Shown: positions 1,410 through 42,636 of the stretch, piece after piece
How the letters are laid out: each line of letters begins with the position of its first letter
Position numbering within the stretch: the stretch's first letter is position 1
Source: an uncultured Gammaproteobacteria bacterium
GTDB lineage: Bacteria > Patescibacteriota > Patescibacteriia > UBA9934 > GWF2-40-263
Direction of reading: 5' to 3'
DNA: 64,000 nucleotides
Assembly (NCBI GenBank): GCA_964399675.1
Contig: CAYNRK010000006.1
Location: 1,886 to 65,885, forward strand
Program-made: the position numbers and the translations under genes
The notes under the pieces: generated by a model
The model's input: the letters and a program-made list of their open reading frames with translations, nothing else
What the model was told of the DNA's origin: nothing
Database searches by the model: none

Positions 1410-3182
1410 TTATTCTAAATTTCTTACTGGAGGAATCTCAAAGTACTGTAGCAGAAATTCGGCCAAATCCCCAAACAATGGAGCGGCCGTAGATTCTGCC
1501 CATATAACATCTTTTGGATTATCAATTCTTACAATCATTGCAAACTTTGGATTTTCAACAGGACCAAATCCGACAAATGAACCAATTGTGTAATCCTCGC
1601 TATACCCTATTCCGTCTTTTTTCGGCACCTGCGCGGTTCCTGTTTTCCCTGCAATATAATATCCATCAACACCTGCCCGACGCCCATGCCCGCGTTCAAT
1701 CACAGAAACCAACATGGCACCTAACAGACGAGAAGTTTTTGAATCAATAACTTGGGCAATGTCTTTGGAAGAAGTTTTCTCAATTGTTCCATCAGAATGA
1801 CGAACCTCCTCAACAATGTATGGACGTTTAAGCACGCCCCCATTGGCAATCGCGGCAAAGGCTGAAACTATTTGAATTGGTGTTGTTGTGATCCCTTGTC
1901 CAAATGTAGCTGTGGCTGAATAAATCTCTGATTCATTTTCAAGAGAAGAAACATCTCCGGTAAGTTCTTTTTCAAGTTCTATCTCAGTTTTTTTTCCAAA
2001 TCCAAATTTGGAAACATATTCTTTAAACACATCTGTACCCATTTGTCGCATTGAAAAAATCATCCCTGTATTAATTGATTCTTCCAAAACCTTTGTCATA
2101 TCAACCAACCCATAAGATTTACCTTCTGCGTTTCCCAAAGGCTTTGGCCAACCATCAACCATAACGGATCCGGTGTCTTTAAACTGTGTTGTTGGAGTTA
2201 CTGCTTCAACATCAAGCGCAGCTGCCATGGTTATTGGTTTAAAAATTGAACCAGGCTCATAAGCATCAAAAATAGCCGGATTGTTAAATGAATTGATATC
2301 ATCGATTTCAAAATAAGTATTTGGATCAAAATCAGGCGCACCGCACATGGCTAAAATTTTTCCAGAATGCGGTTCCATAATAATGACAGATCCGGAATCC
2401 GCACCGTGTTTTTTAACGGATTTTTCAAGTGTTGAGCAGGCTTTGTATTGAATAGTGCGATCAAGAGTCAATACCAAATCAACACCATCAACAGCAGGTT
2501 CAATAGACCGCTCAGCAACAGCAATAAGTCGCCCGGCAATGTCGCGCTCAGATTGAATAAATCCTGTTGTGCCGGCAAGAAGTTTGTTGAAATATCCCTC
2601 AAGCCCATATTTCCCGGACTTGGAACCATCTTCATTTGAACCCAAAAAACCAATCACATGTCCGCTCATAAAAGGTTCGGGATAGATGCGAGTTTCCTCT
2701 CGAACATAATTTATACCGGGCAAATCTAATTCCAGAAGTTTTGCAAGCAATTCATCTGAGACTTCTCGTTCAATAGGTTCATAAGGATCGTCCTTTTGAT
2801 CTAAACGTTTTTCAAGCGCCTCGATCTTGTCAATATCATAATCAAAAATCTCAGCAAGTGCCTCTGCAGTGTCATCTGCTCGATCAATGTGTCGCGGATC
2901 AGCGTAAACAAAAGCGAGACGCTGGTTGGTTGCAATTGGAACCAACTTTTCGTCTTTAAGATCGTGAATGTAAATGCTGCCGCGTTCAGGATTTAATTCT
3001 TGAAAAATCTCATGTTGTCCGCTTGCAACAGCTTCATAAAAACCATGATCAATTACTTGTAAAATAATTAAACGAATTCCAATTGCACACGCAAACAAAA
3101 GTACGCATATTCGAAATGCTTCAATGCGCCAATCATTTGATTTCGATTGTTTTTTCTTCCAGCTCGGTTCTCTTTTACTCAT
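1410..3182 (-). CDS. ftsI: Peptidoglycan D,D-transpeptidase (FtsI/PBP2-type penicillin-binding protein)
   Basis: It has an N-terminal TM segment and the motifs SIFKP (SxxK), SIN-like and KTGTA. It is 590 aa and sits in a dcw-type position upstream of murF. Confidence 0.8.
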
Positions 3183-4392
3183 ACAAAATATCTAACCCAA
3201 ATCCAAAGAGTGATCCCCTTCCAGTAGGACTTCTCCCGGCAAGCACTTCCTCACCATCTGAAATTCCATCCCCATCTGTATCTGGATTGTTTGGATTAGA
3301 CCTATAAAAAATTTCTAAAATGTCTGTAAGCCCATCTCCATCCGCATCAAAATTTGCCTCAACTTTTTGTACTGGCAAACGCACATTAACTGAAGATATT
3401 ATATTTTGATTTAAACGAGATACGGAAGATTGTGTTAAAGCTTCCGGTAGGTTTGCTAAAATCGTTGCTAAAATATCTTTGAATTTAATAGGTTGTTCTG
3501 GTTTCTTAACAGTGACTGATTTATTAAATTCAGAAAGCTCAACTTTGATATCAATTGGAACAAGATCAGATGATGCTTCTGTTGTAAAAGCACCTGCTGC
3601 TTGAACGCGATACAATAAATGGTCCTCAACACCGATCCACAATCTCATTGTTAACCGTTCCAATTGTGCAGCACGACGATTTACAAAAAGACGTTCAGCA
3701 TCTGTTGGCTCTCTACCTTCTTTTGCTCGAACCAGATCTAACAAAAACGACTGTAATGCTTCTTTATCAAATCGCGCATCCAAAATTCTTACTTTCTTTT
3801 CATCTATTGTTTCTGTTAGACCATCAAACGTAACTAAGAAAATGTCAGCGAATCTTAAAACATAACGAAAACGTTCGATTGCTTTTGGCGTCCAAACAGA
3901 TGTTGATGTTGATGCTTCCATTGGTAAATCAATCCCTGGTAGGATTGATCCCCAGGATCTAAGCTCGCCTGGCTCAAAAACAATCCAGGTTTCTTCTTTT
4001 TCAAATTCCACTCCAGAAATTTCCGGTGCTGGTGCACGATAGGTTAGATAAATCTTTTGGTCTTTTGAACGAATCTCGCCGGAAAGGTCTGTAAAGTTTT
4101 CAGTTCTTGTTAAATGCTTAGCATCAAATGTTGTTTTATGCTCAATCTTGGTTAGATCAGAAATGTAAACATCTGATGTTGTGAAAACGGTTGTAATATC
4201 CCGAACAGCATCTCCTTGACGCGTCCAACCAAACAAAGATTCCTGATGAAAACTTTCAAGCTCAGACATGGCAATCAACATTTTCTTCATCTCCACTTCC
4301 GGATGAAATTCAGAAAACACAACCCAAGATGCAAATGTTACAGATAACACCACTGCCACGCCAATTAAAATAAAAATAAGGCTTTTATGCAT
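3175..4392 (-). CDS. Hypothetical membrane-anchored protein with a C-terminal DxDxDG (thrombospondin-3-like Ca-binding) repeat region
   Basis: I chose the start at ATG 4392 ([17 protein letters not shown]). The ORF-track N-terminal extension to 4482 is encoded by MITE copy 1. The C-terminus reads DADGDGLTD...[12 protein letters not shown]. Confidence 0.5.
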
Positions 4393-4544
4393 GAGACCGT
4401 TGAAATACTCCAGTGCGAGGTCAAAGTGAGGAATTTTTTTCAGAGATCGTTTCAGGATGACGAGGCGATATGGACATATCATTGAGGAATCATAAAACGA
4501 TCTCTGGGAAAAATAACCGCTTTGGAGCCGTGCTGGAGTATTTC
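4393..4544. mobile_element. Family-C MITE-like element, copy 1 (about 152 bp, 21-bp TIR GAGACCGTTGAAATACTCCAG, nested inner 12-bp inverted repeat)
   Basis: It is near-identical to 15517-15677. The terminal inverted repeats and an internal CAGAGATCGTTT...AAACGATCTCTG palindrome are visible. Confidence 0.65.
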
Positions 4545-4587
4545 AACGGTCTCCATAGCCCTATTTTACCTTTTTGTATCGATTTCG

Positions 4588-5040
4588 TTAAATTTCTGAA
4601 ATATCATCTTCTGAGAGAATTTTTCCAAAATACACACCAGCCTCTCCGGTATTCTCATTGCTTATCAAACGCAATGTTTGACCGTCTTTTGATTGATAGT
4701 CTGTAAACAAATAACGATCATCCTCTTCTGTTTCTGAATCGCCTTCAATTGCAGTTACGTTACCTGCATCCTCGTAATTAAATTCGAATTCCTTTCCCTG
4801 ATACAAAATCACATCAGATGGTTCAACCTCGTCGTGAACGCGATCAAAAAGGATAAGTTCCTCGGTATCAGGCGCAACAGAAAGAAGTCCTTCATTATCA
4901 TTGTAAAGCCAAAATATTTTTGTTCCATCATCAAGCGTTACTTCTGCACGGCCCATGTATTGGAACGGTTGATTTAAAACGCTGACTGATTCGCCAAGCT
5001 CTGTTAAAAGAAGTTGTGAAATATTCATAAATTGAATCAC
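4588..5040 (-). CDS. Hypothetical acidic protein (150 aa)
   Basis: It is a clean ORF with host-like AT-rich composition. I recognise no motif. Confidence 0.4.
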   Translation of the reverse strand: MIQFMNISQLLLTELGESVSVLNQPFQYMGRAEVTLDDGTKIFWLYNDNEGLLSVAPDTEELILFDRVHDEVEPSDVILYQGKEFEFNYEDAGNVTAIEGDSETEEDDRYLFTDYQSKDGQTLRLISNENTGEAGVYFGKILSEDDISEI

Positions 5041-5209
5041 CGGAGAAATTCCTCCTTAGTTTTGTATTCTTCGCCGATTATACTCACAAGTTGAAAATAA
5101 GTAAATCCTGTTTTCCCCAAATTTTTTTATTTTCAAATATGTGTAATTTTTTGACTATTTTTAGCCAAAACCACTTATCCTTCCGAAGCTCCAAAGGAGC
5201 GAAGGAGGG

Positions 5210-5238
5210 TTGACAAAAGTGCATTTTTGTGGTATCAT
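5210..5238 (+). promoter_or_regulatory. Sigma70-type promoter TTGACA-17-TATCAT for cassette 1
   Basis: TTGACA is at 5210-5215, the spacer is exactly 17 nt, and TATCAT is at 5233-5238. Confidence 0.5.
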
Positions 5239-5281
5239 TTTGCGTCATCCTGATTTCGATTGGGATACGCTCTGGGCCTTG

Positions 5282-5362
5282 GTCGAGCTCAACTCGACCT
5301 TGTAGCCCACTTTCCAACCGGGTCTTGTCGAGCTCAGCTCGACTCAGTGCCCCTTTCCAACA
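5282..5362 (+). promoter_or_regulatory. Two tandem copies of a hairpin-forming leader unit (GTCGAGCTCARCTCGAC + GCCCmCTTTCCAAC) in the 5' UTR of cassette 1
   Basis: Units are at 5282-5319 and 5327-5364. Each begins with a near-perfect palindrome and the second is followed by the SD AGGAGG at 5362-5367. Confidence 0.45.
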
Positions 5363-5372
5363 GGAGGAGACC

Positions 5373-6170
5373 ATGGGTCTTCGAACCAACGAGCGACTGG
5401 ATGACCTATGCACCACCGGGAGCTTGCTCTGGGAGCACGTCAAGGATCCGAGAGAGCCCGGACGAGACGGCCTGCTCAAGCGCGCGTTCCGTGTCGCGGA
5501 GTACAGGAACGTCGTGATCGAGCTGCCGGCCGGCGCCGTCGTCGAGCTGGTTGACACCGAGTTCGAGGGTGCCGGCACCTACTTCCACACCGAGGTCTTC
5601 GGAGTCAATCTGCACTTCCGGGACGGGCTCAAGCCCACGGCTGGTGAAGTCGTGATCTGCGACGTCCAGATCTACCTCGAGACCTGGGAGCCGGACTGGA
5701 GCGAGTTGAGCGAGGCCGAGCGGCGCAGGAGGCGTGGCTATCGGAACTACAAGTTCAAGCTCAACGCGACCCCGTGTGCCAAGTCGGACGCCCAGGCAAG
5801 GATGCGCTTGCACATCCGTGACGTGAACGCGGATGGCTACACGCGCATGCACAAGGACATCACAGGGGACGGAGAGCGCTTCGCGCACATGTCCCCGGAC
5901 TGGAAGCCGGACGGCTCCAAGCCCTGGGCCAGGAACCAGGACCTCCAGCTCCTGCAGATCCGGACCAAGGCCGGCAAGGGCGGTGGCAGTGGCAAGGCCG
6001 ACAAACCGGAGACCAAGGCCGGCAAGGGCAAGGGCAACGGCAAGGACAAGCCGCCGCAGAGGACCGAAGCCCAGGTCGTGCGTGAGGTCGACGGCGAGGC
6101 CAGGACGTCCATGCGCGACCTCTTGCGCAACGTCGTCCTTCCCACCACGACCACCCCCTCGGGCTCCTGA
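5373..6170 (+). CDS. Hypothetical protein, strongly GC-rich foreign gene (266 aa, Lys/Gly-rich C-terminal tail)
   Basis: ATG at 5373 lies 5 nt after AGGAGG. GC is about 65% by eye against an AT-rich host, with GC3-rich codons. The antisense ORFs here are high-GC artifacts. Confidence 0.6.
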   Translation: MGLRTNERLDDLCTTGSLLWEHVKDPREPGRDGLLKRAFRVAEYRNVVIELPAGAVVELVDTEFEGAGTYFHTEVFGVNLHFRDGLKPTAGEVVICDVQIYLETWEPDWSELSEAERRRRRGYRNYKFKLNATPCAKSDAQARMRLHIRDVNADGYTRMHKDITGDGERFAHMSPDWKPDGSKPWARNQDLQLLQIRTKAGKGGGSGKADKPETKAGKGKGNGKDKPPQRTEAQVVREVDGEARTSMRDLLRNVVLPTTTTPSGS

Positions 6171-6198
6171 GCCGCAAGGCTCTTCCCGCAAGGGATCT

Positions 6199-6247
6199 GA
6201 CGCCGCCAGCAACTCTCGCTGGCGGCGTCTTAATTTTCAAAAATTTT
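6199..6247 (+). terminator. Intrinsic terminator of cassette 1
   Basis: A perfect 12-bp stem GACGCCGCCAGC-aactctc-GCTGGCGGCGTC is followed by TTAATTTTCAAAAATTTT. Confidence 0.6.
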
Positions 6248-6252
6248 CCATC

Positions 6253-6445
6253 AACCTCCGACGAACCCCCAGGCCACCACCAACAGGTACGTTGTATAAT
6301 TTCGCCAGCACGAGCGAAGCGAGTCTGCCGAAATTATACAACGTGACTGTCCCCCATAATTCTCTACGAAGTCTGCCCGCAGCTCAGCTGCGGGCAGACT
6401 TTTCTAACCCCCCCCTTAATCCCCCCTTGAAAAGGGGGGAACTTC
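6253..6445. repeat. Family-B leader-like repeat, copy 1 (orphaned): CCTCCGACGAAC..., a long perfect hairpin ACGTTGTATAATTTCG/CGAAATTATACAACGT, and a G/C-rich distal hairpin
   Basis: It aligns with 44600-44775 and 48171-48400. On the minus strand it reads extended -10 (TTGTATAAT), hairpin, then GGAGG. Confidence 0.6.
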
Positions 6446-6447
6446 GA

Positions 6448-6975
6448 TTAAATCTTATACAAATACAAATTTGGTGAACCTTTGATCTCGTCAACTTTTA
6501 CAGAATCCCATTCAGGAATTGGCCAAACATAACTTACAACTTTGGTGCCCGGCTTTAACTCCTTTTCCAACTTTGGTTTAATTTTTTTGTAAGTTTCAGG
6601 CATTAAAAAAAGATAGACTGCTGTGTAGTCAGAAAGATCATGAGCAAATGCATTTGATAAAACTATTCTTACTTGACTATGTTTTCCAAAAAAATTCTGA
6701 AACTTTCCAATTAAAACTTGCAAAATGGAAAGCTCCACTCCGGTCGAAGCTGCGCCTGTATTTTTTGAAAGATGCCTGCAAACCCTGCCGTTTCCGCAAC
6801 CTAACTCAACAAACCGATCGTCTTTATTAAGTTCTAACAAATTCTCAATACGTTTTAAATCACGTTTCCACGTTGGCACCCATGGCGCTCCTGAAATCCC
6901 AGCGTATGCTGCTGAGATAAGTAGAATCATGAATATAACAAAAAGAAAAGTCCACATAATAAACAAGAATAACAC
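6448..6975 (-). CDS. Class I SAM-dependent methyltransferase with an N-terminal TM anchor
   Basis: It has the motif I VELGCGNG. It is a paralog of 15696-16238 and both end in LYLYKI. Confidence 0.6.
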   Translation of the reverse strand: MLFLFIMWTFLFVIFMILLISAAYAGISGAPWVPTWKRDLKRIENLLELNKDDRFVELGCGNGRVCRHLSKNTGAASTGVELSILQVLIGKFQNFFGKHSQVRIVLSNAFAHDLSDYTAVYLFLMPETYKKIKPKLEKELKPGTKVVSYVWPIPEWDSVKVDEIKGSPNLYLYKI

Positions 6976-7040
6976 AGGTTCACTTGATCGATAAGATCAT
7001 TTCGTTTATCATCTTTATCATTAAACTTAAAAATAAAATC

Positions 7041-7778
7041 ATGAAACCTTTTTTGATATTACAACTAAGACCTGAAAACCCAACATCTGATAATGAATTT
7101 GAGGCAATTGTAAATTTTAGCGGCCTTGATGAATCAGAAACTCATAGAATTAGAATGGAACAAGGTGGTCTGCCAGAAATAAATCTTAATGATTATTCTG
7201 GAATCATTGTTGGAGGCGGGCCATGGAACGTAAGCGATGATCAATCAAAAAAATCTAAAGAACAAAAAAACGCAGAAGTTTGGCTTGATAAATTAATTGA
7301 TGAAGTTATTGAAAAAGATTTTCCATTTCTTGGAGCTTGCTATGGATTTGGTGCGCTGGCCATAAAAAATAACGGCGTGGTAAATAAGGAACAATACACT
7401 GAGGAACCTAGTGCTATTGATATTACACTGACAGATGAAGCAAAAAACGACCCTTTGTTGCAAGGGCTTCCTGAAACATTTCGCGCAATGGTTGGTCACA
7501 AAGAATCTTGTCAAAAACTTCCTGAAAATGCTGTCTGGCTTGCCAGGGCTGAGGCATGTCCTTATGAAATGTTTCGTATTGGAAAAAATATTTACGCAAC
7601 GCAGTTCCATCCTGAACTAGAAACAGAGGGTTTTTGTCTTCGTGTTGAAATTTATAAAAATGCTGGCTATTTTCCACCAGAGGATGCTGAAAAATTAAAA
7701 GAAGAAGCAAGAAAAGAAAACATCATTGTGCCAATGATGCTATTAAAAAAGTTTATTGATACTTATCGATCTGAATAA
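7041..7778 (+). CDS. Class I glutamine amidotransferase-like protein
   Basis: The start is ATG at 7041 (MKPFLIL). It has the GATase1 nucleophile elbow GACYGFGA and a His later (FHPE). Confidence 0.55.
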   Translation: MKPFLILQLRPENPTSDNEFEAIVNFSGLDESETHRIRMEQGGLPEINLNDYSGIIVGGGPWNVSDDQSKKSKEQKNAEVWLDKLIDEVIEKDFPFLGACYGFGALAIKNNGVVNKEQYTEEPSAIDITLTDEAKNDPLLQGLPETFRAMVGHKESCQKLPENAVWLARAEACPYEMFRIGKNIYATQFHPELETEGFCLRVEIYKNAGYFPPEDAEKLKEEARKENIIVPMMLLKKFIDTYRSE

Positions 7779-8179
7779 TTAGAAATAAATCTAAAACAAG
7801 TTCCAATACAAATTGCTATAAGCAAAGAAATAATTGCTCTGACAACAAAAAATCTTACACTAAAATAATCTGCCTCAATAAAAAATCTTGCAGGGCCAAT
7901 AAGAGTCTGACCTGTAATAAACGCAGCAATTATACTCAATGGCATGCCTTTTTTATTAAGGTCTCTTAAAAGCGGAAGGTAAGCTAAAATTGGTCCAGGT
8001 GTTGCAACCCCAACAGCAGAAGCTTCAACAATGTTCTTTTCGTTTTCAACAAAAATTGCCTTTATCTTTTTTCTTGGCAAATAAACGCTAATAATTTGTG
8101 AAACAATAATCGCAATAATAACAACTGGCAAAATGTCAATGAAATTTTCTATTGCAGTTTTAAACAATTCAAAAATCAT
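7763..8179 (-). CDS. Putative permease, C-terminal half (polytopic membrane protein)
   Basis: It is a 138-aa hydrophobic ORF translationally coupled to 8176-8589. Confidence 0.4.
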   Translation of the reverse strand: MIFELFKTAIENFIDILPVVIIAIIVSQIISVYLPRKKIKAIFVENEKNIVEASAVGVATPGPILAYLPLLRDLNKKGMPLSIIAAFITGQTLIGPARFFIEADYFSVRFFVVRAIISLLIAICIGTCFRFISNYSDR

Positions 8180-8589
8180 AAAAACATTTCAAGTAAGAAA
8201 CCACCAAGGGTTATGAAAATCACACTAAGAATCATTCTGGTGCTGTAAAATTTAATTCCAAAATATTTAATTTCCGCAATATCTCTAATAACAGACTCGC
8301 TAATTGTTTCTCCTGCAATCAATGCAAAAACAACTCCAAAAGAAGCCCCCTTTAAAAACAAAGCGTATGCAATTGGATATGTAACATATCTTGGAATTGG
8401 AAGAACTACTCCCAAAAACGCTGCTATTGGAATTGCAATCCAAACACTATTTCCAAGCAATATGTTCAAAGAACCTTCAGGTAAATATATTTCGATAATT
8501 GCCCCAGCAAAAACTGCAACAAAAAATATGGGCAAAATAAAACCCAATTCTTTTATGGACCCTGTTGCAATTGCTTTGACTTTACTCAT
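8176..8589 (-). CDS. Putative permease, N-terminal half (polytopic membrane protein)
   Basis: It is hydrophobic throughout (137 aa). It overlaps the next ORF by 4 nt (ATGA), which suggests a two-part permease or a split gene. Confidence 0.4.
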   Translation of the reverse strand: MSKVKAIATGSIKELGFILPIFFVAVFAGAIIEIYLPEGSLNILLGNSVWIAIPIAAFLGVVLPIPRYVTYPIAYALFLKGASFGVVFALIAGETISESVIRDIAEIKYFGIKFYSTRMILSVIFITLGGFLLEMFL

Positions 8590-8607
8590 TAAACCATTAT
8601 ATCAAAT

Positions 8608-9615
8608 TTAATAATCTAGACCTTCTCTAGCCTTCACCCCTGAATAAAAATAATGATTTCGAAGTTTCATTTCAGTAACAAGATGAGCTGCATCTAAAAA
8701 CTCTTGCGGAGCATTGCGGCCGGTCATAATAAGCTCGGTTGTTTTTGGTTTAAGAGAAAGGATTTCTAACACTTCTTTAACTGACAGCATATTGAGATCT
8801 GTTGTTGAATTGATTTCGTCCATAATCACAAGATCATAATTTTGTTCAAACATTTTTTTGACTTCTTCCAGTCCCCGCCTTGCTTCTGCTTTATCAATGT
8901 CCTGAATTGAAAAATCAAACCTGCCGGTTTTTGGATCAATTCTGTCGCGGCCGGTTGCCAAATAATCAATTTTATTTTTTTCTAAAGCACTGCGCTCTGA
9001 GTAATGCGCTTCCCCACCCTTATCAAAATATACGATCCCAACTTTCTTTCCCGCACCTGTTGCGCGAATTGCTGTTCCCAAACTAGCAGTTGTTTTTCCT
9101 TTTCCATTTCCAGTATAAATTTGAATTAATCCGTAACCTTTGTGGCCTTTTATTGATTCTCCGGAACTTATTAACAAACCTTCACTCTCCTGAATTTTTC
9201 TTGCTGCTCGTGCGGGTTTCTCCTGAATGTCATCAGGTAAAGGCTTGCGAAGATCGATCCAGGTAAATTCATTGTGCTCGTGCGACAACTTAACCTCAAC
9301 ATCCTGAATTGGAAGAACGTAAAAAATTCCAATGATTGGTTCGTTTTCAACATCACCCTTAACTCCCCAAAGATCCACATGAACCGGTCTTGCATTTGTT
9401 GGATCGATTGTAATTCCAGTTTCCTCAAAGACTTCACGTTTCAGACAATCTCCTGGTTTTTCACTTTTGTCCATACGCCCGCCAGGCAATGTCCATTCTT
9501 TTGTCCGCCAATGCACACCTTCCCCACTTTCACGAATAAACAAAACTTTTCCTTGCGGATTCATTAGCAGTACTTTATTAGCAACGTATTTTTTTTCCAT
9601 ATATTTCTTTTGCAA
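8608..9615 (-). CDS. Fusion protein: N-terminal NUDIX hydrolase plus C-terminal cob(I)alamin adenosyltransferase (CobA/CobO/BtuR family)
   Basis: The Nudix box is GGRMDKSEKPGDCLKREVFEETGI. The C-terminal half has the P-loop GNGKGKTTASLG and a VIMDEI...MTGR architecture typical of CobA/CobO. Confidence 0.6.
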   Translation of the reverse strand: MQKKYMEKKYVANKVLLMNPQGKVLFIRESGEGVHWRTKEWTLPGGRMDKSEKPGDCLKREVFEETGITIDPTNARPVHVDLWGVKGDVENEPIIGIFYVLPIQDVEVKLSHEHNEFTWIDLRKPLPDDIQEKPARAARKIQESEGLLISSGESIKGHKGYGLIQIYTGNGKGKTTASLGTAIRATGAGKKVGIVYFDKGGEAHYSERSALEKNKIDYLATGRDRIDPKTGRFDFSIQDIDKAEARRGLEEVKKMFEQNYDLVIMDEINSTTDLNMLSVKEVLEILSLKPKTTELIMTGRNAPQEFLDAAHLVTEMKLRNHYFYSGVKAREGLDY

Positions 9616-9680
9616 AGTGTAGCAAAAAACAAGCTTAAATTAAATCCACAACCACAATCTAATCTTACATACCAAATCAC

Positions 9681-9706
9681 ATTTAAGTGACGGCCGTAAC
9701 TTAAAT
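9681..9706. promoter_or_regulatory. 26-bp near-perfect palindrome ATTTAAGTGACGGCCGTAACTTAAAT about 70 bp upstream of the Nudix-CobO gene
   Basis: It has dyad symmetry and sits in the promoter region. This is a candidate operator. Confidence 0.3.
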
Positions 9707-9890
9707 GAAACTTTTAAAATTTTTTAAATTCAAAATACTCTCCCTTCCATAAACGGTTGGGAGATTTTTGTTGAGTTTTGAAATCCGTGGGCCTGGCGTA
9801 GTGCGTTGTACGGGACCATACGTAATACCTGTGGAGTAAACACAGAAAATAAGATACGCTGGTGATGACATTTTTTAATAATCACAGCGT

Positions 9891-10280
9891 ATGACAATAG
9901 CAATAGATGTTTCAATATTAGAATTATTTCTACCAAAAGGAACCATGGACTGGTTCGATATTGTAGAAAGTAAAAACACAGACAATGAAGTCTGTATTAT
10001 TTTAGAAGAAAAAAATATACCACCGCTTTTACCAGAACAGAAAGATAAAAAAATAACCTCAAAAGGTTTTTACAGCATCACCATTACAGACTTTCCAATA
10101 AGAGGAAAAAGGACGTCGCTCACATTTAGGCGTAGAAGATGGAGGGTTGAAGGCCAACAAGAACTTCTCAAACGAGACATTCAGCTCTGTGCTCCGGGAA
10201 CACAGCTTGAAAAAGAATTTGCTTCTTTTTTAAAAGAACAAAGCGGAGAAGTCCGCCATCTCTTTGACGAGTATTGCTGA
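9891..10280 (+). CDS. IS transposase, N-terminal part (orfA)
   Basis: It is a 129-aa ORF. The downstream ORF overlaps it by 17 nt in the +1 frame. Confidence 0.5.
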   Translation: MTIAIDVSILELFLPKGTMDWFDIVESKNTDNEVCIILEEKNIPPLLPEQKDKKITSKGFYSITITDFPIRGKRTSLTFRRRRWRVEGQQELLKRDIQLCAPGTQLEKEFASFLKEQSGEVRHLFDEYC

Positions 10281-11247
10281 GTGGTGCTGTTTGGAAGCTA
10301 AACTCTTCGAACGTCAGTACAAAGACCACCTGAGTAATTACAAAACATGGAACCAGAAGTCACATGCTGACAAATGGCTACTCTTTGAACAAAACATCAG
10401 CTCACATTTAAGTCTGGATGAGGTGTCCATCTCAAACGGGGAGCTGTATACAATACTCACCAACAAAGCAGCCAAAGGAGGTAAAGGGTCTTTGGTTGTT
10501 ATATGCAAAGGAACCAAAACAGAAGATATTGTTAAGGTTTTTAAACGTATTCCATCAATTGAAAGGCAAAGAGTTCTTGAAGTCACCTTAGACTTCTGTC
10601 CAAGTATGGAAAAGTCTGTAAGGCATGCTTTCCCTAATGCCCGAGTTACAAGCGACCGTTTTCATGTTCAAAAGATTGTTACAGAAGCATTGCAGGATAT
10701 GCGCATTGAACTTCGACATAAAGCACTGAAATCTGAAAACAGAGAAGTTGAAAAAGCACGAAAGAAGTGTAAGAAACAAGGTAAGCAATACAAACAACCT
10801 AAGCTAAAAACATACTCAAACGGAGATACAAAGAAACAACTTTTAGCCAGAAGCAGATATCTTCTTTTCAAACCAAAGAGTAAATGGACAGACAACCAAA
10901 AAGAAAGGGCTGTTATTTTGTTTGAAACATTTCCTGAATTAGAAAGTGCTTACAATCTTTCAATGATGTTTAGGAACGTATATGAACAAGCTAAAACAAA
11001 AAAAGAAGCCAAACGGCTACTTTCAAACTGGTACAGCAAGGTTGAAAAAAAAGACTTCCCACATTTCATCACTACTGCCGAATACATTCAAAACCATGAA
11101 GAGACAATCCTTAACTATTTTCCAAACAGATCTACCAATGCTTCTGCTGAATCTTTCAATGCAAAGCTTAAAGGTTTCAGAGCACTGGTCAGAGGGGTAA
11201 GAGACAAGAAGTTTTTTCTTTATAGGGTTTCTAAGATTTGGGGGTAG
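10264..11247 (+). CDS. IS transposase, DDE catalytic part (ISL3-like, orfB); the transposase is frameshifted and possibly inactive
   Basis: It reads DEVSISNGELYTIL...VTSDRFHVQKIV...NASAESFNAKLK, which resembles the DDE_Tnp_ISL3 pattern. ISL3 transposases are normally one ORF. Confidence 0.55.
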   Translation: MTSIAEWCCLEAKLFERQYKDHLSNYKTWNQKSHADKWLLFEQNISSHLSLDEVSISNGELYTILTNKAAKGGKGSLVVICKGTKTEDIVKVFKRIPSIERQRVLEVTLDFCPSMEKSVRHAFPNARVTSDRFHVQKIVTEALQDMRIELRHKALKSENREVEKARKKCKKQGKQYKQPKLKTYSNGDTKKQLLARSRYLLFKPKSKWTDNQKERAVILFETFPELESAYNLSMMFRNVYEQAKTKKEAKRLLSNWYSKVEKKDFPHFITTAEYIQNHEETILNYFPNRSTNASAESFNAKLKGFRALVRGVRDKKFFLYRVSKIWG

Positions 11248-11396
11248 TCCACAGGAATTGCGTATGATCCGTTGTACGGTTTATCACCCAGTACAATAGG
11301 GGTGCAAATCCCCTCAGGTCCACGGATTTCAGAATTTGACTTAAGCTAAAATTTATGTCACTCTTTTTTTGGTTGATAAGCCGTACAAACACTATT

Positions 11397-11432
11397 GTCA
11401 GAAAACAAAAACCTCCGTTATCGGAGGTTTTT
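11397..11432. terminator. Bidirectional intrinsic terminator (AAAAACCTCCGTTATCGGAGGTTTTTGTT) after nrdJ
   Basis: An 8-bp stem is flanked by an A-run and a T-run, 30 nt past the nrdJ stop. Confidence 0.6.
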
Positions 11433-11459
11433 GTTATTTGATATCGACTTAATTTTTCT

Positions 11460-14400
11460 TTAACTACACCCACTTGTTGCTCCACAGTTCAAACATTTAT
11501 AACACGCTGCATTGCGAACCATTATGGAACCGCATGTATCGCATGCAGGTGCATCGGACTGATTATCAAATGTTTGAGTGTGAGCGCCTTGTTTTTCAAA
11601 TAATTTTGTTTGTTCAACAGCATCGTCTGATTCTTCTATCTTAATCAATGGTGTAATATCTTCAGCTTTTACATCACCAGCCACTTCATCCTCCTCAGCA
11701 ACATTTATACCTAAAGAAAGTTGTGCTTCTCGTGACAAAAACTTAATTGCAATCCAACGGAAAATGTAATCTGTAATAGACTTTGCAATACGAATTTGCG
11801 GATTGTTTGTGTAACCGGATGGCTCAAAGCGCATGTGCACGAACTTGTTAACCAAAACTTCGAGTGGCACACCATATTGCAAACCAATAGAAACAGAAGT
11901 TGCAAAACTATCCATTAACCCTGAAATTACAGATCCTTCTTTTGACATTGTTACAAATATCTCACCAGGCATTCCATCATCATACAAACCAACAGTAATA
12001 TATCCTTCGTAATTTCCAACAGAAAACTTGTGCGTTATAGATTTACGCTCGTCTGAAAGCCGTCTGCGTCGGAGTTTTCGCTCTTGCATAGTCAATTCTC
12101 TAGGCTCCTCCTTTTCGCCCAGGCTAAAGCCTGGGGCTACCTCCTCTTTAACCTCTCGGACATCTCGAACCTCTTTTTTATTAGCAGCCTTTGCATCACT
12201 TTCCTTTGAAGTTGTTAAAGCCTGTTGTCGTTTGGAACCGTCTCTATAAATCGCAATTGCTTTGAGCCCAAGCTTCCATCCTTGCATATACACATCAGCT
12301 ATATCCTGTGGAGTTGCCTCATGTGGCATGTTCACGGTTTTGGAAATTGCGCCGGAAATAAACGGTTGAACAGCAGCCATCATTTTTAAATGCCCATTGT
12401 AATGAATCGTTCGCTCGCCATTAGCTGGCTTAAACGCACAATCAAATACTGGCAAATGCTCCTCTTTTATATGCGGTGCGTGTTCAATTGTGTCTGTTTC
12501 CTCGATATAAGCCAAAATTTCCTTTTGTTCTGTTTCTGTATATCCTAACTTTTGAAGCGCCTCTGGCACAGTACCATTAACCATCTTTAACATTCCACCA
12601 CCAACTAACCATTTATACTTCACAAGCGCAATGTCTGGCTCAATACCTGTTGTATCACAATCCATTAAAAATGAAATAGTGCCTGTTGGAGCCAAAACGG
12701 AAATTTGAGCATTTCTAAGTCCATACTTGCTTCCATGTTCAACAACATTATCCCAAGCCTTTTTCGATTCTGTTAACAAATCCGCTGAAACTCCTTCTGA
12801 AGTCATTTCATAAGCTGCGTCACGATGCATGCGCATAACATCAATGCACGGCTTTTCGTTCTGTTTAAATCCAGTAAAAGCACCAAGCTTTTCTGCAATT
12901 TTAGTAGATTGATAATAACAATGTCCGCTTTGAAGCGAAGTAATTGCCGCTGCCAGATTTCGCCCTTCATCAGAATCATAAGCCAGCCCATCACCCATCA
13001 AAAGCGCCCCTAGGTTTGCATAACCAATTCCAACCGGTCTGTAATCTAAACTGTTTTGTTCAATAGCAGGAGTTGGATAAACAGCATTCCCAATAATTAT
13101 CTCCATAGCTGTGATGATAATTTCATTGGCTTTTTTAAATGCCTCAACATCAAAAACCATTTCACCATTTACTGACTTTCGAAACTTAAGAAGATTAAGC
13201 GAAGCAAGATTACAAGCACTGTCATCAAGGAACATGTATTCAGAACAAGGATTGGATGCATTGATTCGGTCGGTATTTTTACATGTGTGCCAGTCATTAA
13301 TGGTTGTGTCGTATTGCATTCCAGGATCTCCACACAACCAAGCTGCTTCGGCAATCTTGCCCATTAGTTCTTTTGCATTGTATTTTAGACTTGGCTTGCC
13401 GGTTAACACTTCTTTTGTTTCCCATTCATCGCCATTTTCAACAGCTTGCATAAACTCATCATTCACACGAACAGAGTTGTTTGCGTTTTGAAAATAAATG
13501 GAAGAATAAGCTGGACCATCAATCGAACCATCATAACCGGCGTCCATAAGTGTCCAAGCCTTTTTTTCTTCCTCAACCTTGCATGTAATAAATTCTTCAA
13601 TGTCTGGATGATCAATATTAAGAATAACCATTTTGGCAGCTCTTCGTGTTTTTCCACCACTCTTGATCACACCAGCAAATGAATCCAATCCTTTCATAAA
13701 AGACACTGGACCCGAAGCGCGCCCATTGCTTCCACCAAGATATTCTTGTTTTGATCGTAATTTTGAAAGGTTTGATCCAGCACCTGAGCCACCTTTGAAC
13801 AACATGCCTTCTGTAACACACAAATTGAGAATGGATCGCATGTCATCATGAACCGAATTTATAAAACACGCAGAGCATTGTTGAGGTCTTGTTGTCCCAA
13901 CATTAAACCAAACAGGCGAATTAAATGCAGCTTTCTGATTAACTAAAATGTGATGAAGCTCAGCCTCAAACGCGTCTGAGTCTTCCTTTGTTTCAAAATA
14001 TCCATCCTTGCGTCCCCAATTTGAAATCGTTGTTGCAACACGTGAAACTATCTGTTTGACTGAATGTTCACGATCATCTTTTCCAACTGTTCCAAAAAAG
14101 TATTTCGCAACCACAATATTTGTTGCTGTTTGAGACCAGGTTTTTGGTACCTCAACATCTTTTTGTTCAAAAACCAACTCGCCTTTAAAATCAGTGATTG
14201 TTGCATCCCGTGTTTCCCATTCAATCTCATCATATGGATGCACGCCTTCTTTTGTAAAATATCGATCTACTTTAATGCCTTTACCATATTGATCTTCCTT
14301 TGCATTATCGCGAGAACTTGAGCGATAACCTAAATATTTTTTTGAAACATGAATCAAATTGTTATCAACAAATGTTAAATTCACAATCTCTCGCACATCA

Positions 14401-14669
14401 GCAAACGACGGCGTGCTGTGTCCATCAAACTGACGAGTTAGTCTTGTTATAACTTGTGAAACCATTCGATCAGTAAGCAATGAATCTTTTACACCTGCCA
14501 CCAAACAGGCCTCACGAATCGAAACGAATAATTTTTGTTTATCAAAATCTTGCTCAGAACCATCTCGTTTTTTAACACTCTTCACAGATGTCATAAATTC
14601 CCATACAGAATCTGAAATCTTAGCTGTGTCCGTTTGAGTGGTTCGGACTTTGTTGGTGGCTTGATCCAT
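11460..14669 (-). CDS. nrdJ: Class II (adenosylcobalamin-dependent) ribonucleotide reductase with an N-terminal ATP-cone and a C-terminal Cys4 zinc ribbon
   Basis: It is 1069 aa. ATP-cone-like N-terminus (KRDGSEQDFDKQKLF). Class II core blocks (...CNLASLNL...; ...VLAPTGTIS...). It ends CDTCGSIMVRNAACYKCLNCGATSGCS. Confidence 0.8.
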   Translation of the reverse strand: MDQATNKVRTTQTDTAKISDSVWEFMTSVKSVKKRDGSEQDFDKQKLFVSIREACLVAGVKDSLLTDRMVSQVITRLTRQFDGHSTPSFADVREIVNLTFVDNNLIHVSKKYLGYRSSSRDNAKEDQYGKGIKVDRYFTKEGVHPYDEIEWETRDATITDFKGELVFEQKDVEVPKTWSQTATNIVVAKYFFGTVGKDDREHSVKQIVSRVATTISNWGRKDGYFETKEDSDAFEAELHHILVNQKAAFNSPVWFNVGTTRPQQCSACFINSVHDDMRSILNLCVTEGMLFKGGSGAGSNLSKLRSKQEYLGGSNGRASGPVSFMKGLDSFAGVIKSGGKTRRAAKMVILNIDHPDIEEFITCKVEEEKKAWTLMDAGYDGSIDGPAYSSIYFQNANNSVRVNDEFMQAVENGDEWETKEVLTGKPSLKYNAKELMGKIAEAAWLCGDPGMQYDTTINDWHTCKNTDRINASNPCSEYMFLDDSACNLASLNLLKFRKSVNGEMVFDVEAFKKANEIIITAMEIIIGNAVYPTPAIEQNSLDYRPVGIGYANLGALLMGDGLAYDSDEGRNLAAAITSLQSGHCYYQSTKIAEKLGAFTGFKQNEKPCIDVMRMHRDAAYEMTSEGVSADLLTESKKAWDNVVEHGSKYGLRNAQISVLAPTGTISFLMDCDTTGIEPDIALVKYKWLVGGGMLKMVNGTVPEALQKLGYTETEQKEILAYIEETDTIEHAPHIKEEHLPVFDCAFKPANGERTIHYNGHLKMMAAVQPFISGAISKTVNMPHEATPQDIADVYMQGWKLGLKAIAIYRDGSKRQQALTTSKESDAKAANKKEVRDVREVKEEVAPGFSLGEKEEPRELTMQERKLRRRRLSDERKSITHKFSVGNYEGYITVGLYDDGMPGEIFVTMSKEGSVISGLMDSFATSVSIGLQYGVPLEVLVNKFVHMRFEPSGYTNNPQIRIAKSITDYIFRWIAIKFLSREAQLSLGINVAEEDEVAGDVKAEDITPLIKIEESDDAVEQTKLFEKQGAHTQTFDNQSDAPACDTCGSIMVRNAACYKCLNCGATSGCS

Positions 14670-14822
14670 AATGATAATGAAAAGGGTTTCAAAATTTTAT
14701 TTTAAATAATGCATAAGCCGCAAGATCGTAAATTTTGAGTCAACCTAATTTGGGCAGACTAAAAACAATCCCTATGGGATCATTTCTATTACTCCTGGAA
14801 GCCTATATTCCCCTCCCCGCGG

Positions 14823-14872
14823 CGCACCACTACATGTTGTGGTCTAAGTTAATTGTATACCACTATATATTG
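14823..14872. promoter_or_regulatory. Two NrdR-box-like palindromes (CACCACTACATGTTGTGG and ACCACTATATATTGTGTG), centres about 32 bp apart, upstream of nrdJ
   Basis: They match the NrdR box consensus acaCwAtATaTwGtgt and the characteristic tandem spacing of about three helical turns. They lie 155-200 bp upstream of the nrdJ start. Confidence 0.5.
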
Positions 14873-14924
14873 TGTGTCAAAGAAATGGCTTATCCACAGT
14901 TTTTTGCGACACTTGGCACTCGAA

Positions 14925-15503
14925 CTAGAAACCCATGGTCAAATTGATGTTTGGTTTCTCTTGTTGTTTTAGCTCAAAATCCACTGGAATAGCTCGACGC
15001 CCACCCAATCTATCATTGTAAGCCAGCGCCTTATACTTAAGTCCGTATTCATAGACATCACGAGTTGCACGCACGTCTTCTATACAATAATCCTTGATCT
15101 TTTGAATCTCACCTTGCTTCCACCACTCAACAGCCATTAGCCCATGAGCGGTCTTCCCTTTCCCAACCGTTGCCTTGGCAACATCATCAAGCTTTAATCG
15201 AAATCCAAGAGCCTTATGAATTTCCGCCAAAATATCCAGGTTTGGAAAGGTTAGAAAATCACCACTGTAATAATTATTCATGATTGGAAGATCAAAATGG
15301 ATTTGGTTGTATCCGATAATCCGATCAGCGTGTTCTAGCCGTGGCCATAAATCTGGCAGCTCGTGAACTTCAAAAGCTTCAAAAGTATCAGTCTCATAAA
15401 AATAACAGCCGATCACTGATATCTTCAAAGCTTTTAAGTTAAAACCTCCAACATCGTTGAAGGTATTTTGTGTTTCAATATCTAGAACAACCTCTTTTTT
15501 CAT
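14925..15503 (-). CDS. DEDDy-type 3'-5' exonuclease (DnaQ/RNase D-like fold)
   Basis: I chose the start at ATG 15503 (MKKEVVLDIETQ). The Exo I motif is LDIET, Exo II is GYNQIHFDLPI and Exo III is YCIEDVRATRDVY. The ORF-track extension comes from MITE copy 2. Confidence 0.6.
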   Translation of the reverse strand: MKKEVVLDIETQNTFNDVGGFNLKALKISVIGCYFYETDTFEAFEVHELPDLWPRLEHADRIIGYNQIHFDLPIMNNYYSGDFLTFPNLDILAEIHKALGFRLKLDDVAKATVGKGKTAHGLMAVEWWKQGEIQKIKDYCIEDVRATRDVYEYGLKYKALAYNDRLGGRRAIPVDFELKQQEKPNINLTMGF

Positions 15504-15516
15504 AACCACAATATTA

Positions 15517-15677
15517 GAGACTGTTGGAATACTCCAGTGCGAGATCAAAGTGAGAAATTTTTTTCAGAAATAGTTTCAGGACGACGAGACGATATGGACA
15601 TATCGTTGAGGAATCATGAAACTATTTCTGGGAAAAATAGCCGCTTTGGAGCCGTGCTGGAGTATTTCAACGGTCTC
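15517..15677. mobile_element. Family-C MITE-like element, copy 2
   Basis: It is near-identical to 4393-4544, including the TIRs GAGACTGTTGGAATACTCCAG / CTGGAGTATTTCAACGGTCTC. Confidence 0.65.
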
Positions 15678-15695
15678 TAGTATAACATAGGATTT

Positions 15696-16238
15696 TTAAA
15701 TTTTGTAAAGATACAATTTTTCTGATCCAAATTGGACTTTATCAATAAGTTTCAAGGTTGGAAACGTGAATTGACGTGAGACAATTCGTGTTCCTGGGGG
15801 AAAGGTTTTTTTAAAAGTTGGTTCCAGTTTCTTGTTTACTTCATTAAAAAGATAAACAAAAATTACATCAGCTTTTGGAAATTTCTGAGAAAAAATATTC
15901 CCTTGATGAATTTTGACTTGATCTGACACTTTTTGAATTCGGCACTTTATAGAGCCAAGCATGCACAAAAGTTTTAATCGCTCAATCCCCACTCCTTTGG
16001 TTCCATGATATTTTGCTGCATGAATTAAAAACGACCCATCACCACACCCAAGATCTAATATTGTGTCATCTGGATGAATATCTCCAAGCTTGCAAATGGC
16101 ATCTGCCATCTTCCCTTTTGTCTTTACAAACGGAACGGTTTTGTGGCCTTGATAAATCATGTAAACAGCAAGGATCCCAATTGCAAGAGCAAGTAACTCT
16201 ATAAATAAAGCAAGAAGCAAACCAAGTTCAGAATTCAT
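15696..16238 (-). CDS. Membrane-anchored class I SAM-dependent methyltransferase (paralog of 6448-6975)
   Basis: The start is ATG at 16238 (MNSELGLLLALFIELL, TM). It has the motif I LDLGCGDG and the same C-terminal LYLYKI as its paralog. Confidence 0.6.
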   Translation of the reverse strand: MNSELGLLLALFIELLALAIGILAVYMIYQGHKTVPFVKTKGKMADAICKLGDIHPDDTILDLGCGDGSFLIHAAKYHGTKGVGIERLKLLCMLGSIKCRIQKVSDQVKIHQGNIFSQKFPKADVIFVYLFNEVNKKLEPTFKKTFPPGTRIVSRQFTFPTLKLIDKVQFGSEKLYLYKI

Positions 16239-40471: not shown

Positions 40472-42583
40472 ATGCGAGTTCTCTCTTCAGCCTACTTTAC
40501 CACTTCCTCTGTGCTTTTCCTAGCGCTTTTTGTTTTAAATACTTTTGTTTGGAAAAATCCATGGGCGGGTATTATTCTGTTGATTTTTTTCTTTATTAGG
40601 TACGGTTCGCTTGTTGGAAAACAATTAAGCCCGGATGAACCCTCTGCGCACTGGTGGCTTGGATCATTTATAATTTTGTCATGCGTAAGCATTTTTGGAT
40701 CTTTGGCATATTATATTTGGAGCATGCCTGCTGCCCTATTCCAAATTCTTGCAATTCTCATTATCGGATTTGCGCATTTAAAAACCAAACACCATATAAA
40801 AAATCCGTTCCGTCATGTTCATAAACTTTTTAAAATAAAAGAGCACAAACTCCCTCAAGCAACATTGATATCCTCGGCCATTATTTTATTTCTGGTCTTT
40901 TTTATTTTACTTTACCTTGGAGATCACCAAATCGTTGATGCAGTACGATCACAATGGGAACGCATGGACTCTTCTCTTTTCTTGCTAATGGGATTGAGTC
41001 TGTTTTTGTTATTTGGCCTACTAATGCGAGGCAAAGAAAAATCAATGGTTCTTGTGTTGGTGTCTGTTGTTTTGTTTGCTTTTGTTTCTGTTGCTGCAAT
41101 AGCTTTTCCAATCGGTTTTGGATTTGACACATTTATTCATGAAGCAACGGTTACTCACATTGCAGAATTTGGCACAATCAGCCCAAAGCCATTTTATTAT
41201 ATTGGCCAATATTCAATTGTACTTTTTTTGCATCACGCATTTTCCTTACCACTTGAAATCATCAATACTTATCTTGTTCCGGTATTAACCGCCTTATTTC
41301 TCCCATCTGTTTGGTTCTTTGCTGCTGCGCACATGCTTAAGAAAAAACAAGATGCAATGGCAACGCTCATGGGGCTGTTCCTTTTACCGCTTTCGCTTTT
41401 TATAATTTCAACACCTCAAGCGCTTGCCAACCTTTGGATCTTGCTCACAATCCTTATGAGCATTCCGATCTTGTTGGGCAAACCTGTTCTTAAAAGGCTG
41501 TGGCTTATTGTTCCGGTATTAAGCGCGCTGTTCATCCACCCAATCGCCGGGATTCCGATTGTCTTGTATGTTACATTATTATTTTTACATCCTGAAGATC
41601 AGCCCACGCAATGGAAACAAAAAGCTAAAACATTATTCTGGCTTATTGCAGCTTTGGCAGCAATAGTTTTACCACTCAGCTTTCTTGTAAACTCAGTCCT
41701 TGCCGGAAACGGACCTTCTCTTGATCTGTCTGGATTTAGCTTTTCTAGTATTTTGAATCTTAATATCTTTTTTGAAAATCGATTTAATCCAATTCTTGAT
41801 TTTGTTTATTTGTATGGTTTTAATGCATCGCTCATTCTCTTTTTGATTGCCGGCTTTGCATGGTTTGAATATAAAAAAGATCTGCCTCAACGATTTTCCA
41901 TAACACTAATTATGGCAGCTGCGCTGTTGGTGAACTTCATTCTGATGAAAACAATTGTAGACTTTTCATTTTTGATTGATTACGAACGCCTTAACTATGC
42001 AAACCGTTTGGTGCCCTTGATGATCTTTTTCCTTGTGCCGTATCTGCTTCTTGGATTTGGACATTTTGTAATGAACATTCGATCGCGTCCAATAGCGATC
42101 AAAGCGTTTTCAATTGTGCTCTTAGCAACAATTGGCACAAGTGCGTTTTATCTTGCTTATCCACGTCGCGATGCATATGCAACAAGTCATGGATTCAATG
42201 TTGGCCAGGCTGATATTAAAACGGTTCATGAAATTGAAAACTGGTCTAATAATGAACCATATCTTGTTCTTGCCAATCAATCTGTTTCTGCAGCAGCAAT
42301 ATCGGAAATTGATTTTCGTTACTATAACAATCTGTTTTTCTATCCAATACCAACCGGCGGTGATCTTTATCAAAAATTTTTGAGCATGAATGATCATCCT
42401 ACACGCGACATAGCAAAAGAAGCTCTGAAGCTTGTGCCAATGCACGGAGATGTAAATATGCTTTACTATGTTGTAAACACCTACTGGTGGCAAGCGCCCA
42501 GAATAATTGAAACAGCAAAAACAACCGCCAATGAATGGCGGTCGGTTGATAATGTTGTTTTTATCTTCCGTTACGATTTTTAA
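40472..42583 (+). CDS. Large polytopic membrane protein (703 aa), possibly a GT-C-like glycosyltransferase or polymerase
   Basis: It has many TM helices over the first about 560 aa and a soluble C-terminal domain. Confidence 0.4.
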   Translation: MRVLSSAYFTTSSVLFLALFVLNTFVWKNPWAGIILLIFFFIRYGSLVGKQLSPDEPSAHWWLGSFIILSCVSIFGSLAYYIWSMPAALFQILAILIIGFAHLKTKHHIKNPFRHVHKLFKIKEHKLPQATLISSAIILFLVFFILLYLGDHQIVDAVRSQWERMDSSLFLLMGLSLFLLFGLLMRGKEKSMVLVLVSVVLFAFVSVAAIAFPIGFGFDTFIHEATVTHIAEFGTISPKPFYYIGQYSIVLFLHHAFSLPLEIINTYLVPVLTALFLPSVWFFAAAHMLKKKQDAMATLMGLFLLPLSLFIISTPQALANLWILLTILMSIPILLGKPVLKRLWLIVPVLSALFIHPIAGIPIVLYVTLLFLHPEDQPTQWKQKAKTLFWLIAALAAIVLPLSFLVNSVLAGNGPSLDLSGFSFSSILNLNIFFENRFNPILDFVYLYGFNASLILFLIAGFAWFEYKKDLPQRFSITLIMAAALLVNFILMKTIVDFSFLIDYERLNYANRLVPLMIFFLVPYLLLGFGHFVMNIRSRPIAIKAFSIVLLATIGTSAFYLAYPRRDAYATSHGFNVGQADIKTVHEIENWSNNEPYLVLANQSVSAAAISEIDFRYYNNLFFYPIPTGGDLYQKFLSMNDHPTRDIAKEALKLVPMHGDVNMLYYVVNTYWWQAPRIIETAKTTANEWRSVDNVVFIFRYDF

Positions 42584-42587: not shown

Positions 42588-42636
42588 CAAGACTATTTTC
42601 CGACGATCGTCGGAAAATAGTCTTGTTTTTGTTTTG
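42588..42636 (+). terminator. Intrinsic terminator with a perfect 17-bp stem (CAAGACTATTTTCCGACGA/TCGTCGGAAAATAGTCTTG)
   Basis: It is followed by TTTTTGTTTTG. Confidence 0.65.

Follow-up and report, generated by a model that had tools for sequence, protein, structure and literature searches.

A 161-bp palindromic element, probably a non-autonomous transposon remnant, in front of two genes of a Candidatus Uhrbacteria-like genome

Genes and repeat copies at the two loci

We analysed a 64-kb stretch of DNA (contig CAYNRK010000006.1, positions 1,886 to 65,885; 64,000 nucleotides (nt), hereafter the window) in which a short palindromic element is present twice. The window has a G+C content of about 40%, and the homologues of the proteins encoded next to the element carry the names Candidatus Uhrbacteria or Patescibacteria. 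Copy A (positions 4393-4553), delimited by alignment, blastn and folding, and copy B (15517-15677) represent one 161-bp unit. Both copies are described on the + strand, which serves as a reference orientation only; the flanking genes are located on the − strand.

Copy A separates a DUF4178 gene (4588-5028, − strand), with its stop codon 34 nt away, from a downstream gene encoding a TSP3-repeat membrane protein of 405 amino acids (aa) (3175-4392, − strand). Copy B is placed between a methyltransferase gene (15696-16238, − strand), with the stop codon 18 nt from the element, and a gene encoding a 192-aa RNase H-like 3′-5′ exonuclease (PF13482/PF10108; 14925-15503, − strand). The start codons of the two downstream genes were assigned on the basis of their homologues. 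The TSP3 protein begins with the Met at 4392, from which seven homologues of about 50% identity and 395-413 aa could be aligned, and the exonuclease begins at 15503, nearly all of its approximately 120 homologues being 192 aa long. The distance between the element and the ATG is 0 nt for copy A and 13 nt for copy B. An earlier reading made from the letters alone (the sequence-only reading) had placed both copies directly against the true ATG, which is correct for copy A but not for copy B.

The presence of the element affects both gene annotation and assembly. Gene callers wrongly prefix 30 element-derived codons (4393-4482, − strand) to the membrane protein, and public protein collections hold the resulting 435-aa TSP3-repeat protein (P0001, 3175-4482, − strand), the true form having 405 aa. 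This spurious extension of 30 aa is read in frame −2 from an ATG at 4482, while the one at copy B is read in frame −0 from a TTG at 15548 and comprises about 10 element-derived aa. The two extensions had been described as similar N-termini encoded by the element; they are in fact read in different frames of it and are not similar. Assemblies also break inside the element. The contig of one sample (L083, Logan SRR9166041_29213) begins within copy B, to which its positions 1-154 correspond; we attribute this start to an assembly break, since a stretch of 38 nt is identical between copies A and B.

Structure of the element

Copies A and B share 148 of 161 positions, with no indels (blastn E=1e-63), and have the same orientation. 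Their similarity ends abruptly at both edges, beyond which the flanking sequences are unrelated. Each copy is bounded by 21-nt terminal inverted repeats (TIRs) of the sequence GAGACCGTTGAAATACTCCAG, for which four matches were found in the window and none in 100 shuffles. In copy A the right TIR (4533-4553, − strand) is a perfect complement of the left one (4393-4413, + strand). In copy B the TIRs agree at 19 of 21 positions: the right TIR (15657-15677, − strand) is identical to the consensus of copy A and both mismatches (C6T and A11G) are located in the left arm (15517-15537, + strand).

Nested between the TIRs is an inner palindrome, which occupies positions 4433-4514 in copy A (arms 4433-4458 and 4489-4514) and 15557-15638 in copy B (arms 15557-15596 and 15599-15638). 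It is perfect in both copies (CAGAGATCGTTT...AAACGATCTCTG in copy A and CAGAAATAGTTT...AAACTATTTCTG in copy B), and its centre reads GATAT-GGAC-ATATC. The near-identity of the two copies, the 21-bp TIRs and the nested palindrome had all been recognized in the sequence-only reading and are confirmed here. Two of its values have to be corrected: copy A ends at 4553, the end of the alignment, and not at 4544, and the length of the element is 161 bp and not about 155 bp.

Translation of the element in six frames revealed stops in every frame and a longest open stretch of 31 codons, which identifies it as non-coding. A covariance-model scan of the whole window with Rfam 15 gave nothing at the gathering score. 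In E-value mode, scores were obtained only for models of miRNA precursors, with 18-22 bits against thresholds of 50-95.

Empty sites and evidence for insertion

The gene order around both copies is retained in Uhrbacteria relatives. At locus A, the order methyltransferase ... DUF4178, TSP3, PBP2, Mur ligase in relative L086 is the same as in the window. The spacer between the DUF4178 and TSP3 genes measures 45 nt in L086 and 38 nt in L087, compared with 195 nt in the window (34+161+0). At locus B, relatives L097-L101 (L097-L099 include GCA_001790985.1, Candidatus Uhrbacteria) keep the order glycosyl hydrolase ... methyltransferase, exonuclease, class II ribonucleotide reductase (RNR), and the spacer between the methyltransferase and exonuclease genes is 15 or 39 nt long, compared with 192 nt in the window (18+161+13). 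Nothing resembling the element was found at either locus in L086/L087 or L097-L101. All of them represent other species (about 50-80% aa identity) and not strains of the same population. Sequence L079 was also considered as an empty site for locus B and set aside: its exonuclease gene shows 80% nt identity, but the upstream gene is a different one.

The two copies are independent insertions at two unrelated loci. As the sequence-only reading had anticipated, they do not belong to a larger segmental duplication, the genes flanking them being unrelated.

We also considered that the copies might serve as sites of recombination or delimit an 11-kb mobile unit (4393-15677), such as a composite transposon or a segment with attC-like boundaries. 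The direct copies bracket genes for a B12-dependent class II RNR and a CobO/BtuR-type cobalamin adenosyltransferase, together with an insertion sequence (IS) of the ISL3 family, and their ends hold the heptamers GTTGAAA/TTTCAAC, which loosely resemble integron core sites. Integron attC sites carry RYYYAAC at the 5′ end and GTTRRRY at the 3′ end, and are found in cassette arrays beside intI. The heptamers of the element stand in the reverse order, GTTGAAA fails GTTRRRY at the last base, no integrase is encoded among the annotated open reading frames (ORFs), and the copies are situated 11 kb apart in housekeeping synteny; the attC assignment was rejected on these features. In the relatives, synteny from the methyltransferase gene (6448-6975) ... 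DUF4178 to TSP3-PBP2-Mur ligase spans the site of copy A, and synteny from the methyltransferase gene to exonuclease-RNR spans that of copy B. Since gene order crosses each copy, we regard both as simple insertions and reject the composite transposon or acquired 11-kb segment, an explanation that has next to no probability in our assessment.

Short direct repeats flank each copy. At copy A, the ATG start codon of the TSP3 gene (4390-4392, − strand) forms one half of a 3-bp repeat, the other half being a second ATG on the promoter side of the element (4554-4556, − strand), a candidate target-site duplication. On the gene strand the context reads ...TAAAATAGGGCT ATG (element) ATG CAT AAA..., and removal of the element together with one ATG restores an N-terminus like that of the homologues, MHKS. 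This arrangement is compatible with a target duplication of 3 bp. At copy B, TA is found on the gene side (15515-15516) and on the promoter side (15678-15679), which fits a 2-bp duplication. The check for target-site duplications proposed with the sequence-only reading thus found short repeats at both copies (ATG at A, TA at B), but of inconsistent length and sequence.

Promoter context of the insertion sites

The window contains 19 extended −10 motifs of the form TGnTAnAAT, of which 14 are on the coding (−) strand. For 6 of these 14, an ORF of 137-670 aa has its ATG within 6-9 nt after the motif (examples on the − strand are those at 56389, 54855, 49491, 23358, 22805 and 8604). Shine-Dalgarno motifs are rare in the window. 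Judged by established promoter geometry, the genome looks largely leaderless or near-leaderless in style.

A promoter-like site, TTAACG-17-TAAAAT, was identified by consensus scan upstream of copy A (4563-4591, − strand). Its TAAAAT is followed by 6 nt and then by the promoter-side ATG, and the sequence TAAAATAG(G)GG upstream of this copy is also present in relative L086. At locus B, one of the 19 extended −10 motifs, TGTTATACT (15679-15687, − strand), ends 1 nt before the element. A second −10-like hexamer, TAATAT (15511-15516, − strand), directly follows copy B, 7 nt before the ATG. In the relatives at locus B, the same ATG is preceded at a distance of 9-10 nt by TGCTATAAT or TACAAT, and in L079 a TGCTATAAT box precedes the ATG of the exonuclease gene by 10 nt.

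Each insertion site is a short spacer between co-directional genes, and both copies lie 1-9 nt downstream of a −10 box, between the box and the start codon. The sequence-only reading had proposed an insertion preference for promoter DNA. The location of both copies just downstream of a −10 box agrees with this proposal, although it comprises two events; a preference of the element for promoter DNA is suggestively indicated and plausible.

The other proposal of that reading, namely that the element delivers a promoter, did not hold. Outward-facing promoter parts at its ends would in that case drive the downstream genes, directly 5′ of which both copies are situated, and a candidate hexamer (TTGACC in copy A, TTGATC in copy B) is indeed found 29 nt from the gene-proximal end. 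However, TTGACC has no −10 partner at 16-18 nt, and a consensus scan of both strands of both copies detected no sigma-70-like hexamer pair inside the element. Nor did the scan and inspection reveal within it the extended −10 motif TGnTAnAAT that is the style of this genome, and the native −10 boxes survive intact outside the element at both sites. We consider promoter delivery highly improbable.

Predicted hairpin and possible constraint on structure

The element folds as a single hairpin, with z = −10 to −13 relative to shuffled sequences. The fold energies are −72.5 (A) and −63.5 (B) kcal/mol on the gene (−) strand, and −89.2 (A) and −88.4 (B) kcal/mol on the + strand, which folds better by about 17-25 kcal/mol. 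When the leader was folded together with the first 50 nt of gene A, the hairpin remained self-contained and the AUG following the stem was unpaired.

The stronger folding of the + strand would suit a small structured RNA produced from that strand and antisense to the flanking genes, and the substitutions in the TIR of copy B give G-U pairs when this strand is folded. A weak promoter-like sequence, ATAACA-16-TAAAAT, is located at 4344-4371 on the + strand, but no comparable + strand promoter was found upstream of copy B, and a scan revealed no terminator after either copy. The Rfam matches do not go beyond generic hairpin noise, and the perfect 21-bp termini and the empty sites fit mobile DNA better. 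The wobble asymmetry among the variable pairs is just 3 to 2, which is not significant, so no conclusion on the strand was drawn. An antisense RNA of this kind is, in our opinion, exceedingly improbable.

Four of the 13 differences between the copies form two both-side pair changes (G-C to A-T and C-G to A-T). Through these compensatory double changes the inner palindrome stays perfect. In a simulation of 13 random substitutions, at least two such pairs arose in 0.5% of cases under a uniform model and in 2.6% under the observed transition bias. Possible causes of the changes are selection, acting either on a hairpin (of RNA or of single-stranded DNA) or on a symmetric site for protein binding, and quasipalindrome correction via template switching. 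In palindromes, compensatory-looking changes can also arise without selection, from template switching or intrastrand repair.

A further explanation is that the element, however it arose, is now retained by host selection as a cis-regulatory RNA hairpin in the 5′ leaders of the two downstream genes, acting through RNase III processing, mRNA stability or translation coupling to a short upstream ORF; Correia and ERIC elements provide demonstrated cases of such effects. The two copies agree in their orientation relative to the gene and in their position class, from −10 box to ATG, although with n=2 an identical orientation has p=0.5. The compensatory doubles preserve a perfect inner stem and most of the other substitutions are structure-neutral on one strand or the other, but template switching or intrastrand repair can produce changes of this appearance as well. 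The AUG stays free of the hairpin, while on the gene strand of copy B two TIR pairs are lost to A-C mismatches. The two downstream genes are functionally unrelated, and the relatives manage without the element at both loci. The rnc gene, encoding RNase III, is retained in at least 90% of genomes of the Candidate Phyla Radiation (CPR) (PMC12641178). Taken together, a host-selected RNA hairpin appears unlikely to us.

Copy number and search for a partner transposase

No third copy of the element was found in the window, searched at low stringency, or in about 13 kb of walked flanks (about 3 kb and about 10 kb). An nhmmer profile of both copies, run against 101 fetched loci (0.8 Mb), recovered only the two known loci. 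The source genome itself is evidently not among the DNA collections scanned. When 185,579 species-representative genomes (596 Gb) were scanned for exact TIR matches (ACYGTTGRAATACTCCAG), 69 single matches scattered over unrelated phyla were obtained, none of which carries the element; this number equals the chance expectation of about 69 (596 Gb x 2 strands x 4 variants / 4^18). TIR look-alikes of 23-24 nt at five Proteobacteria loci (L010, L044, L045, L049 and L053) proved to be one conserved coding motif, ATPase-like and unrelated to the element. A scan of JGI metagenomes for the 21-nt TIR gave four single-arm matches and no element, and the same type of scan gave 0 matches in viral contigs. 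In plasmid and phage collections, blastn of the element produced no match, and the sole match of its six-frame translation among 5.8 billion protein clusters was the window's own 435-aa protein. The sequence-only reading had spoken of a family; this is not established by the two copies, to which neither a third copy in the window and flanks nor a relative in the collections was added.

An ISL3-family transposase (9891-11247) is encoded between the two copies. The IS to which it belongs extends over approximately 9776-11334 and contains ORFs 9891-10280 (129 aa) and 10264/10291-11247 (327/318 aa, PF01610). Its inverted repeats (9776-9838 versus 11245-11334) are unusually long, an extra hairpin occurs at 11272-11388, and the IS is single-copy in the collections, with one genomic place on record. 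ISL3 elements generate 8-bp duplications. The possibility that the 161-bp element is a miniature inverted-repeat transposable element (MITE) derived from ISL3 was rejected, as the TIRs differ and no 8-bp repeats flank the copies, whose 8-bp flanking sequences are unrelated (TTATGCAT versus CATAGCCC, and CAATATTA versus TAGTATAA). Besides the ISL3 gene, no transposase or integrase domain was detected in the other larger annotated ORFs of the window. The earlier statement that no cognate transposase is in the window is accurate in that none with matching TIRs is present, but an ISL3 transposase, with different inverted repeats, does occur there.

Interpretation

We conclude that the element is probably a remnant of a non-autonomous DNA transposon, a non-coding, MITE-like palindrome of 161 bp residing in a Candidatus Uhrbacteria-like genome. 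The sequence-only reading had called it a MITE, a designation that accords with its size (below about 600 bp) and lack of coding capacity, its TIRs and the empty sites, but for which no autonomous partner was found. The element would have been moved in trans by a DDE-type transposase recognising its GAGACC... ends; such an enzyme, absent from the window, may have been lost.

Several observations weigh against a transposon origin. The flanking repeats differ between the copies (a 3-bp ATG and a 2-bp TA), with no length common to both, and could be due to chance in AT-rich DNA. Identical contigs were obtained from a dozen metagenome samples, and the contigs carrying the loci are all clonal, showing no presence/absence polymorphism within the population. 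Just two copies are found in about 78 kb, whereas a high copy number is usual for MITEs. The collections searched (genomes, metagenomes, viruses, plasmids, phages and proteins) yielded no relative of the element, and no autonomous element with matching TIRs was detected in the window or the collections scanned, although a lack of matches there does not demonstrate absence in nature. Finally, the compensatory doubles hint at a constraint on structure, of which a purely selfish relic would have no need.

The position of the element suggests how it may be expressed. Transcription from the native promoters would start at or just inside the element, as judged from the 6-9 nt that separate an extended −10 box from the start of many genes in this genome. 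The mRNA would then carry the whole palindrome at its 5′ end as a 160-nt hairpin (−63 to −72 kcal/mol), which would loop out and leave the AUG of the gene unpaired. At copy A, the duplicated ATG opens an ORF of 25 codons that ends at the hairpin apex (4479-4556, − strand); its predicted translation could help to unwind the stem. RNase III is a candidate to cut the perfect 21-bp stem. Both copies are probably transcribed as hairpin leaders; rather than donating a promoter, the element is probably tolerated or has a mild regulatory effect.

A bolder proposal may be formulated, in which the element represents an undescribed class of mobile palindromes of CPR/Patescibacteria that target the −10-to-AUG bubble region of leaderless genes, the hairpin being tolerated or used and kept by compensatory change. 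Leaderless genes would in this way acquire a hairpin leader that makes their expression dependent on RNase III or on a short upstream ORF. No description of MITEs in CPR, Patescibacteria or Parcubacteria was found in the literature searched. We consider this proposal quite unlikely as a whole. Two points deserve attention: that the copies of this leaderless-style genome lie between a −10 box and the AUG, and that compensatory changes are seen. Should more copies confirm landing between the −10 box and the AUG, the element would offer a natural test of what happens when leaderless genes are suddenly given a structured leader of 160 nt.

Other repeats and features of the window

Mobile DNA is thought to be sparse in small CPR genomes. 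The 64-kb window nevertheless holds, in addition to the 161-bp element and the ISL3 element, a second hairpin repeat family and a 135-bp palindrome. The second repeat family is represented at 6243-6376, 44591-44766 and 48162-48402 by copies of about 130-240 bp that are 61-88% identical to each other. It has a core hairpin (ACAGGTACGTTGTATAATTTCGCCAG / CTGCCGAAATTATACAACGTGACTGT) and, at one edge, CCTCC (GGAGG on the − strand) beside an ATG; the contigs of several samples are interrupted at the 6243-6376 copy. The imperfect 135-bp palindrome (47007-47141) has arms of 57 nt that are 72% complementary and contains GAAATAG/GAAATAT-like words. It is situated in the spacer between two genes of a glycosyltransferase region.

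Two ORFs on the + (minority) strand, at 40472-42583 (703 aa) and 42623-43345 (240 aa), gave no Pfam match at E<=1e-5. A G+C-rich tandem duplication of 48 bp (GACCAAGGCCGGCAAGGGC...) was found at 5963-6058, within an ORF and in a locally G+C-richer stretch.

Comparison with known systems

Correia elements (CREE/NEMIS) of Neisseria are approximately 100-155 bp in length, have long TIRs, including a characteristic 26-bp one, and are flanked by a TA duplication. They are present in hundreds of copies in Neisseria, are found near gene starts, and form hairpins that are substrates of RNase III. The element described here resembles them in its size class, long TIRs and imperfect palindrome, in its location in short spacers near gene starts, in the TA flanking copy B, and in a likely co-transcription into hairpin RNA. 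Unlike Correia elements, it shows no sequence similarity to them, resides in a CPR host, is present in two copies versus hundreds, has one copy (A) flanked by ATG, and exhibits neither promoter-like ends nor evidence of an IHF site. Membership of the Correia group was rejected on account of the TIR (GAGACCGTTGAAATACTCCAG), which differs from the Correia TIR, the absence of flanking TA at copy A, and the Uhrbacteria-like host. Readings of the element as part of a retron or as a REP/RAYT system were dropped on anatomy.

A likeness to MITEs derived from insertion sequences of the IS5 superfamily may also be drawn. In the groups IS1031, IS427 and ISL2 (ISfinder), GAG stands at the start of the ends and insertions are flanked by repeats of 2-3 bp. 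The ends of the 161-bp element likewise begin with GAG and its flanking repeats measure 2-3 bp, which offers a tentative lead. In contrast to IS5-derived MITEs, no transposase of the IS5 type or full IS with these TIRs was found, and ATG and TA are not clearly a target of the TNA type. With the ISL3-family IS of the window, the element has in common only a heptamer near the tip (TTGAAAT/CTGAAAT), the rest of the 60-90-bp inverted repeats being unrelated.

The ERIC/IRU sequences and comparable transcribed intergenic palindromes of enterobacteria show a looser similarity to the element, being imperfect palindromes of 120-160 bp located in transcribed spacers of operons, with an action, if any, at the RNA level. 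ERIC sequences have no sequence similarity to it and lack sharp perfect TIRs, and their mobility is unclear, whereas the element has perfect 21-bp ends and clear empty sites. Set beside these systems, it is an ordinary kind of object that constitutes a new sequence family.

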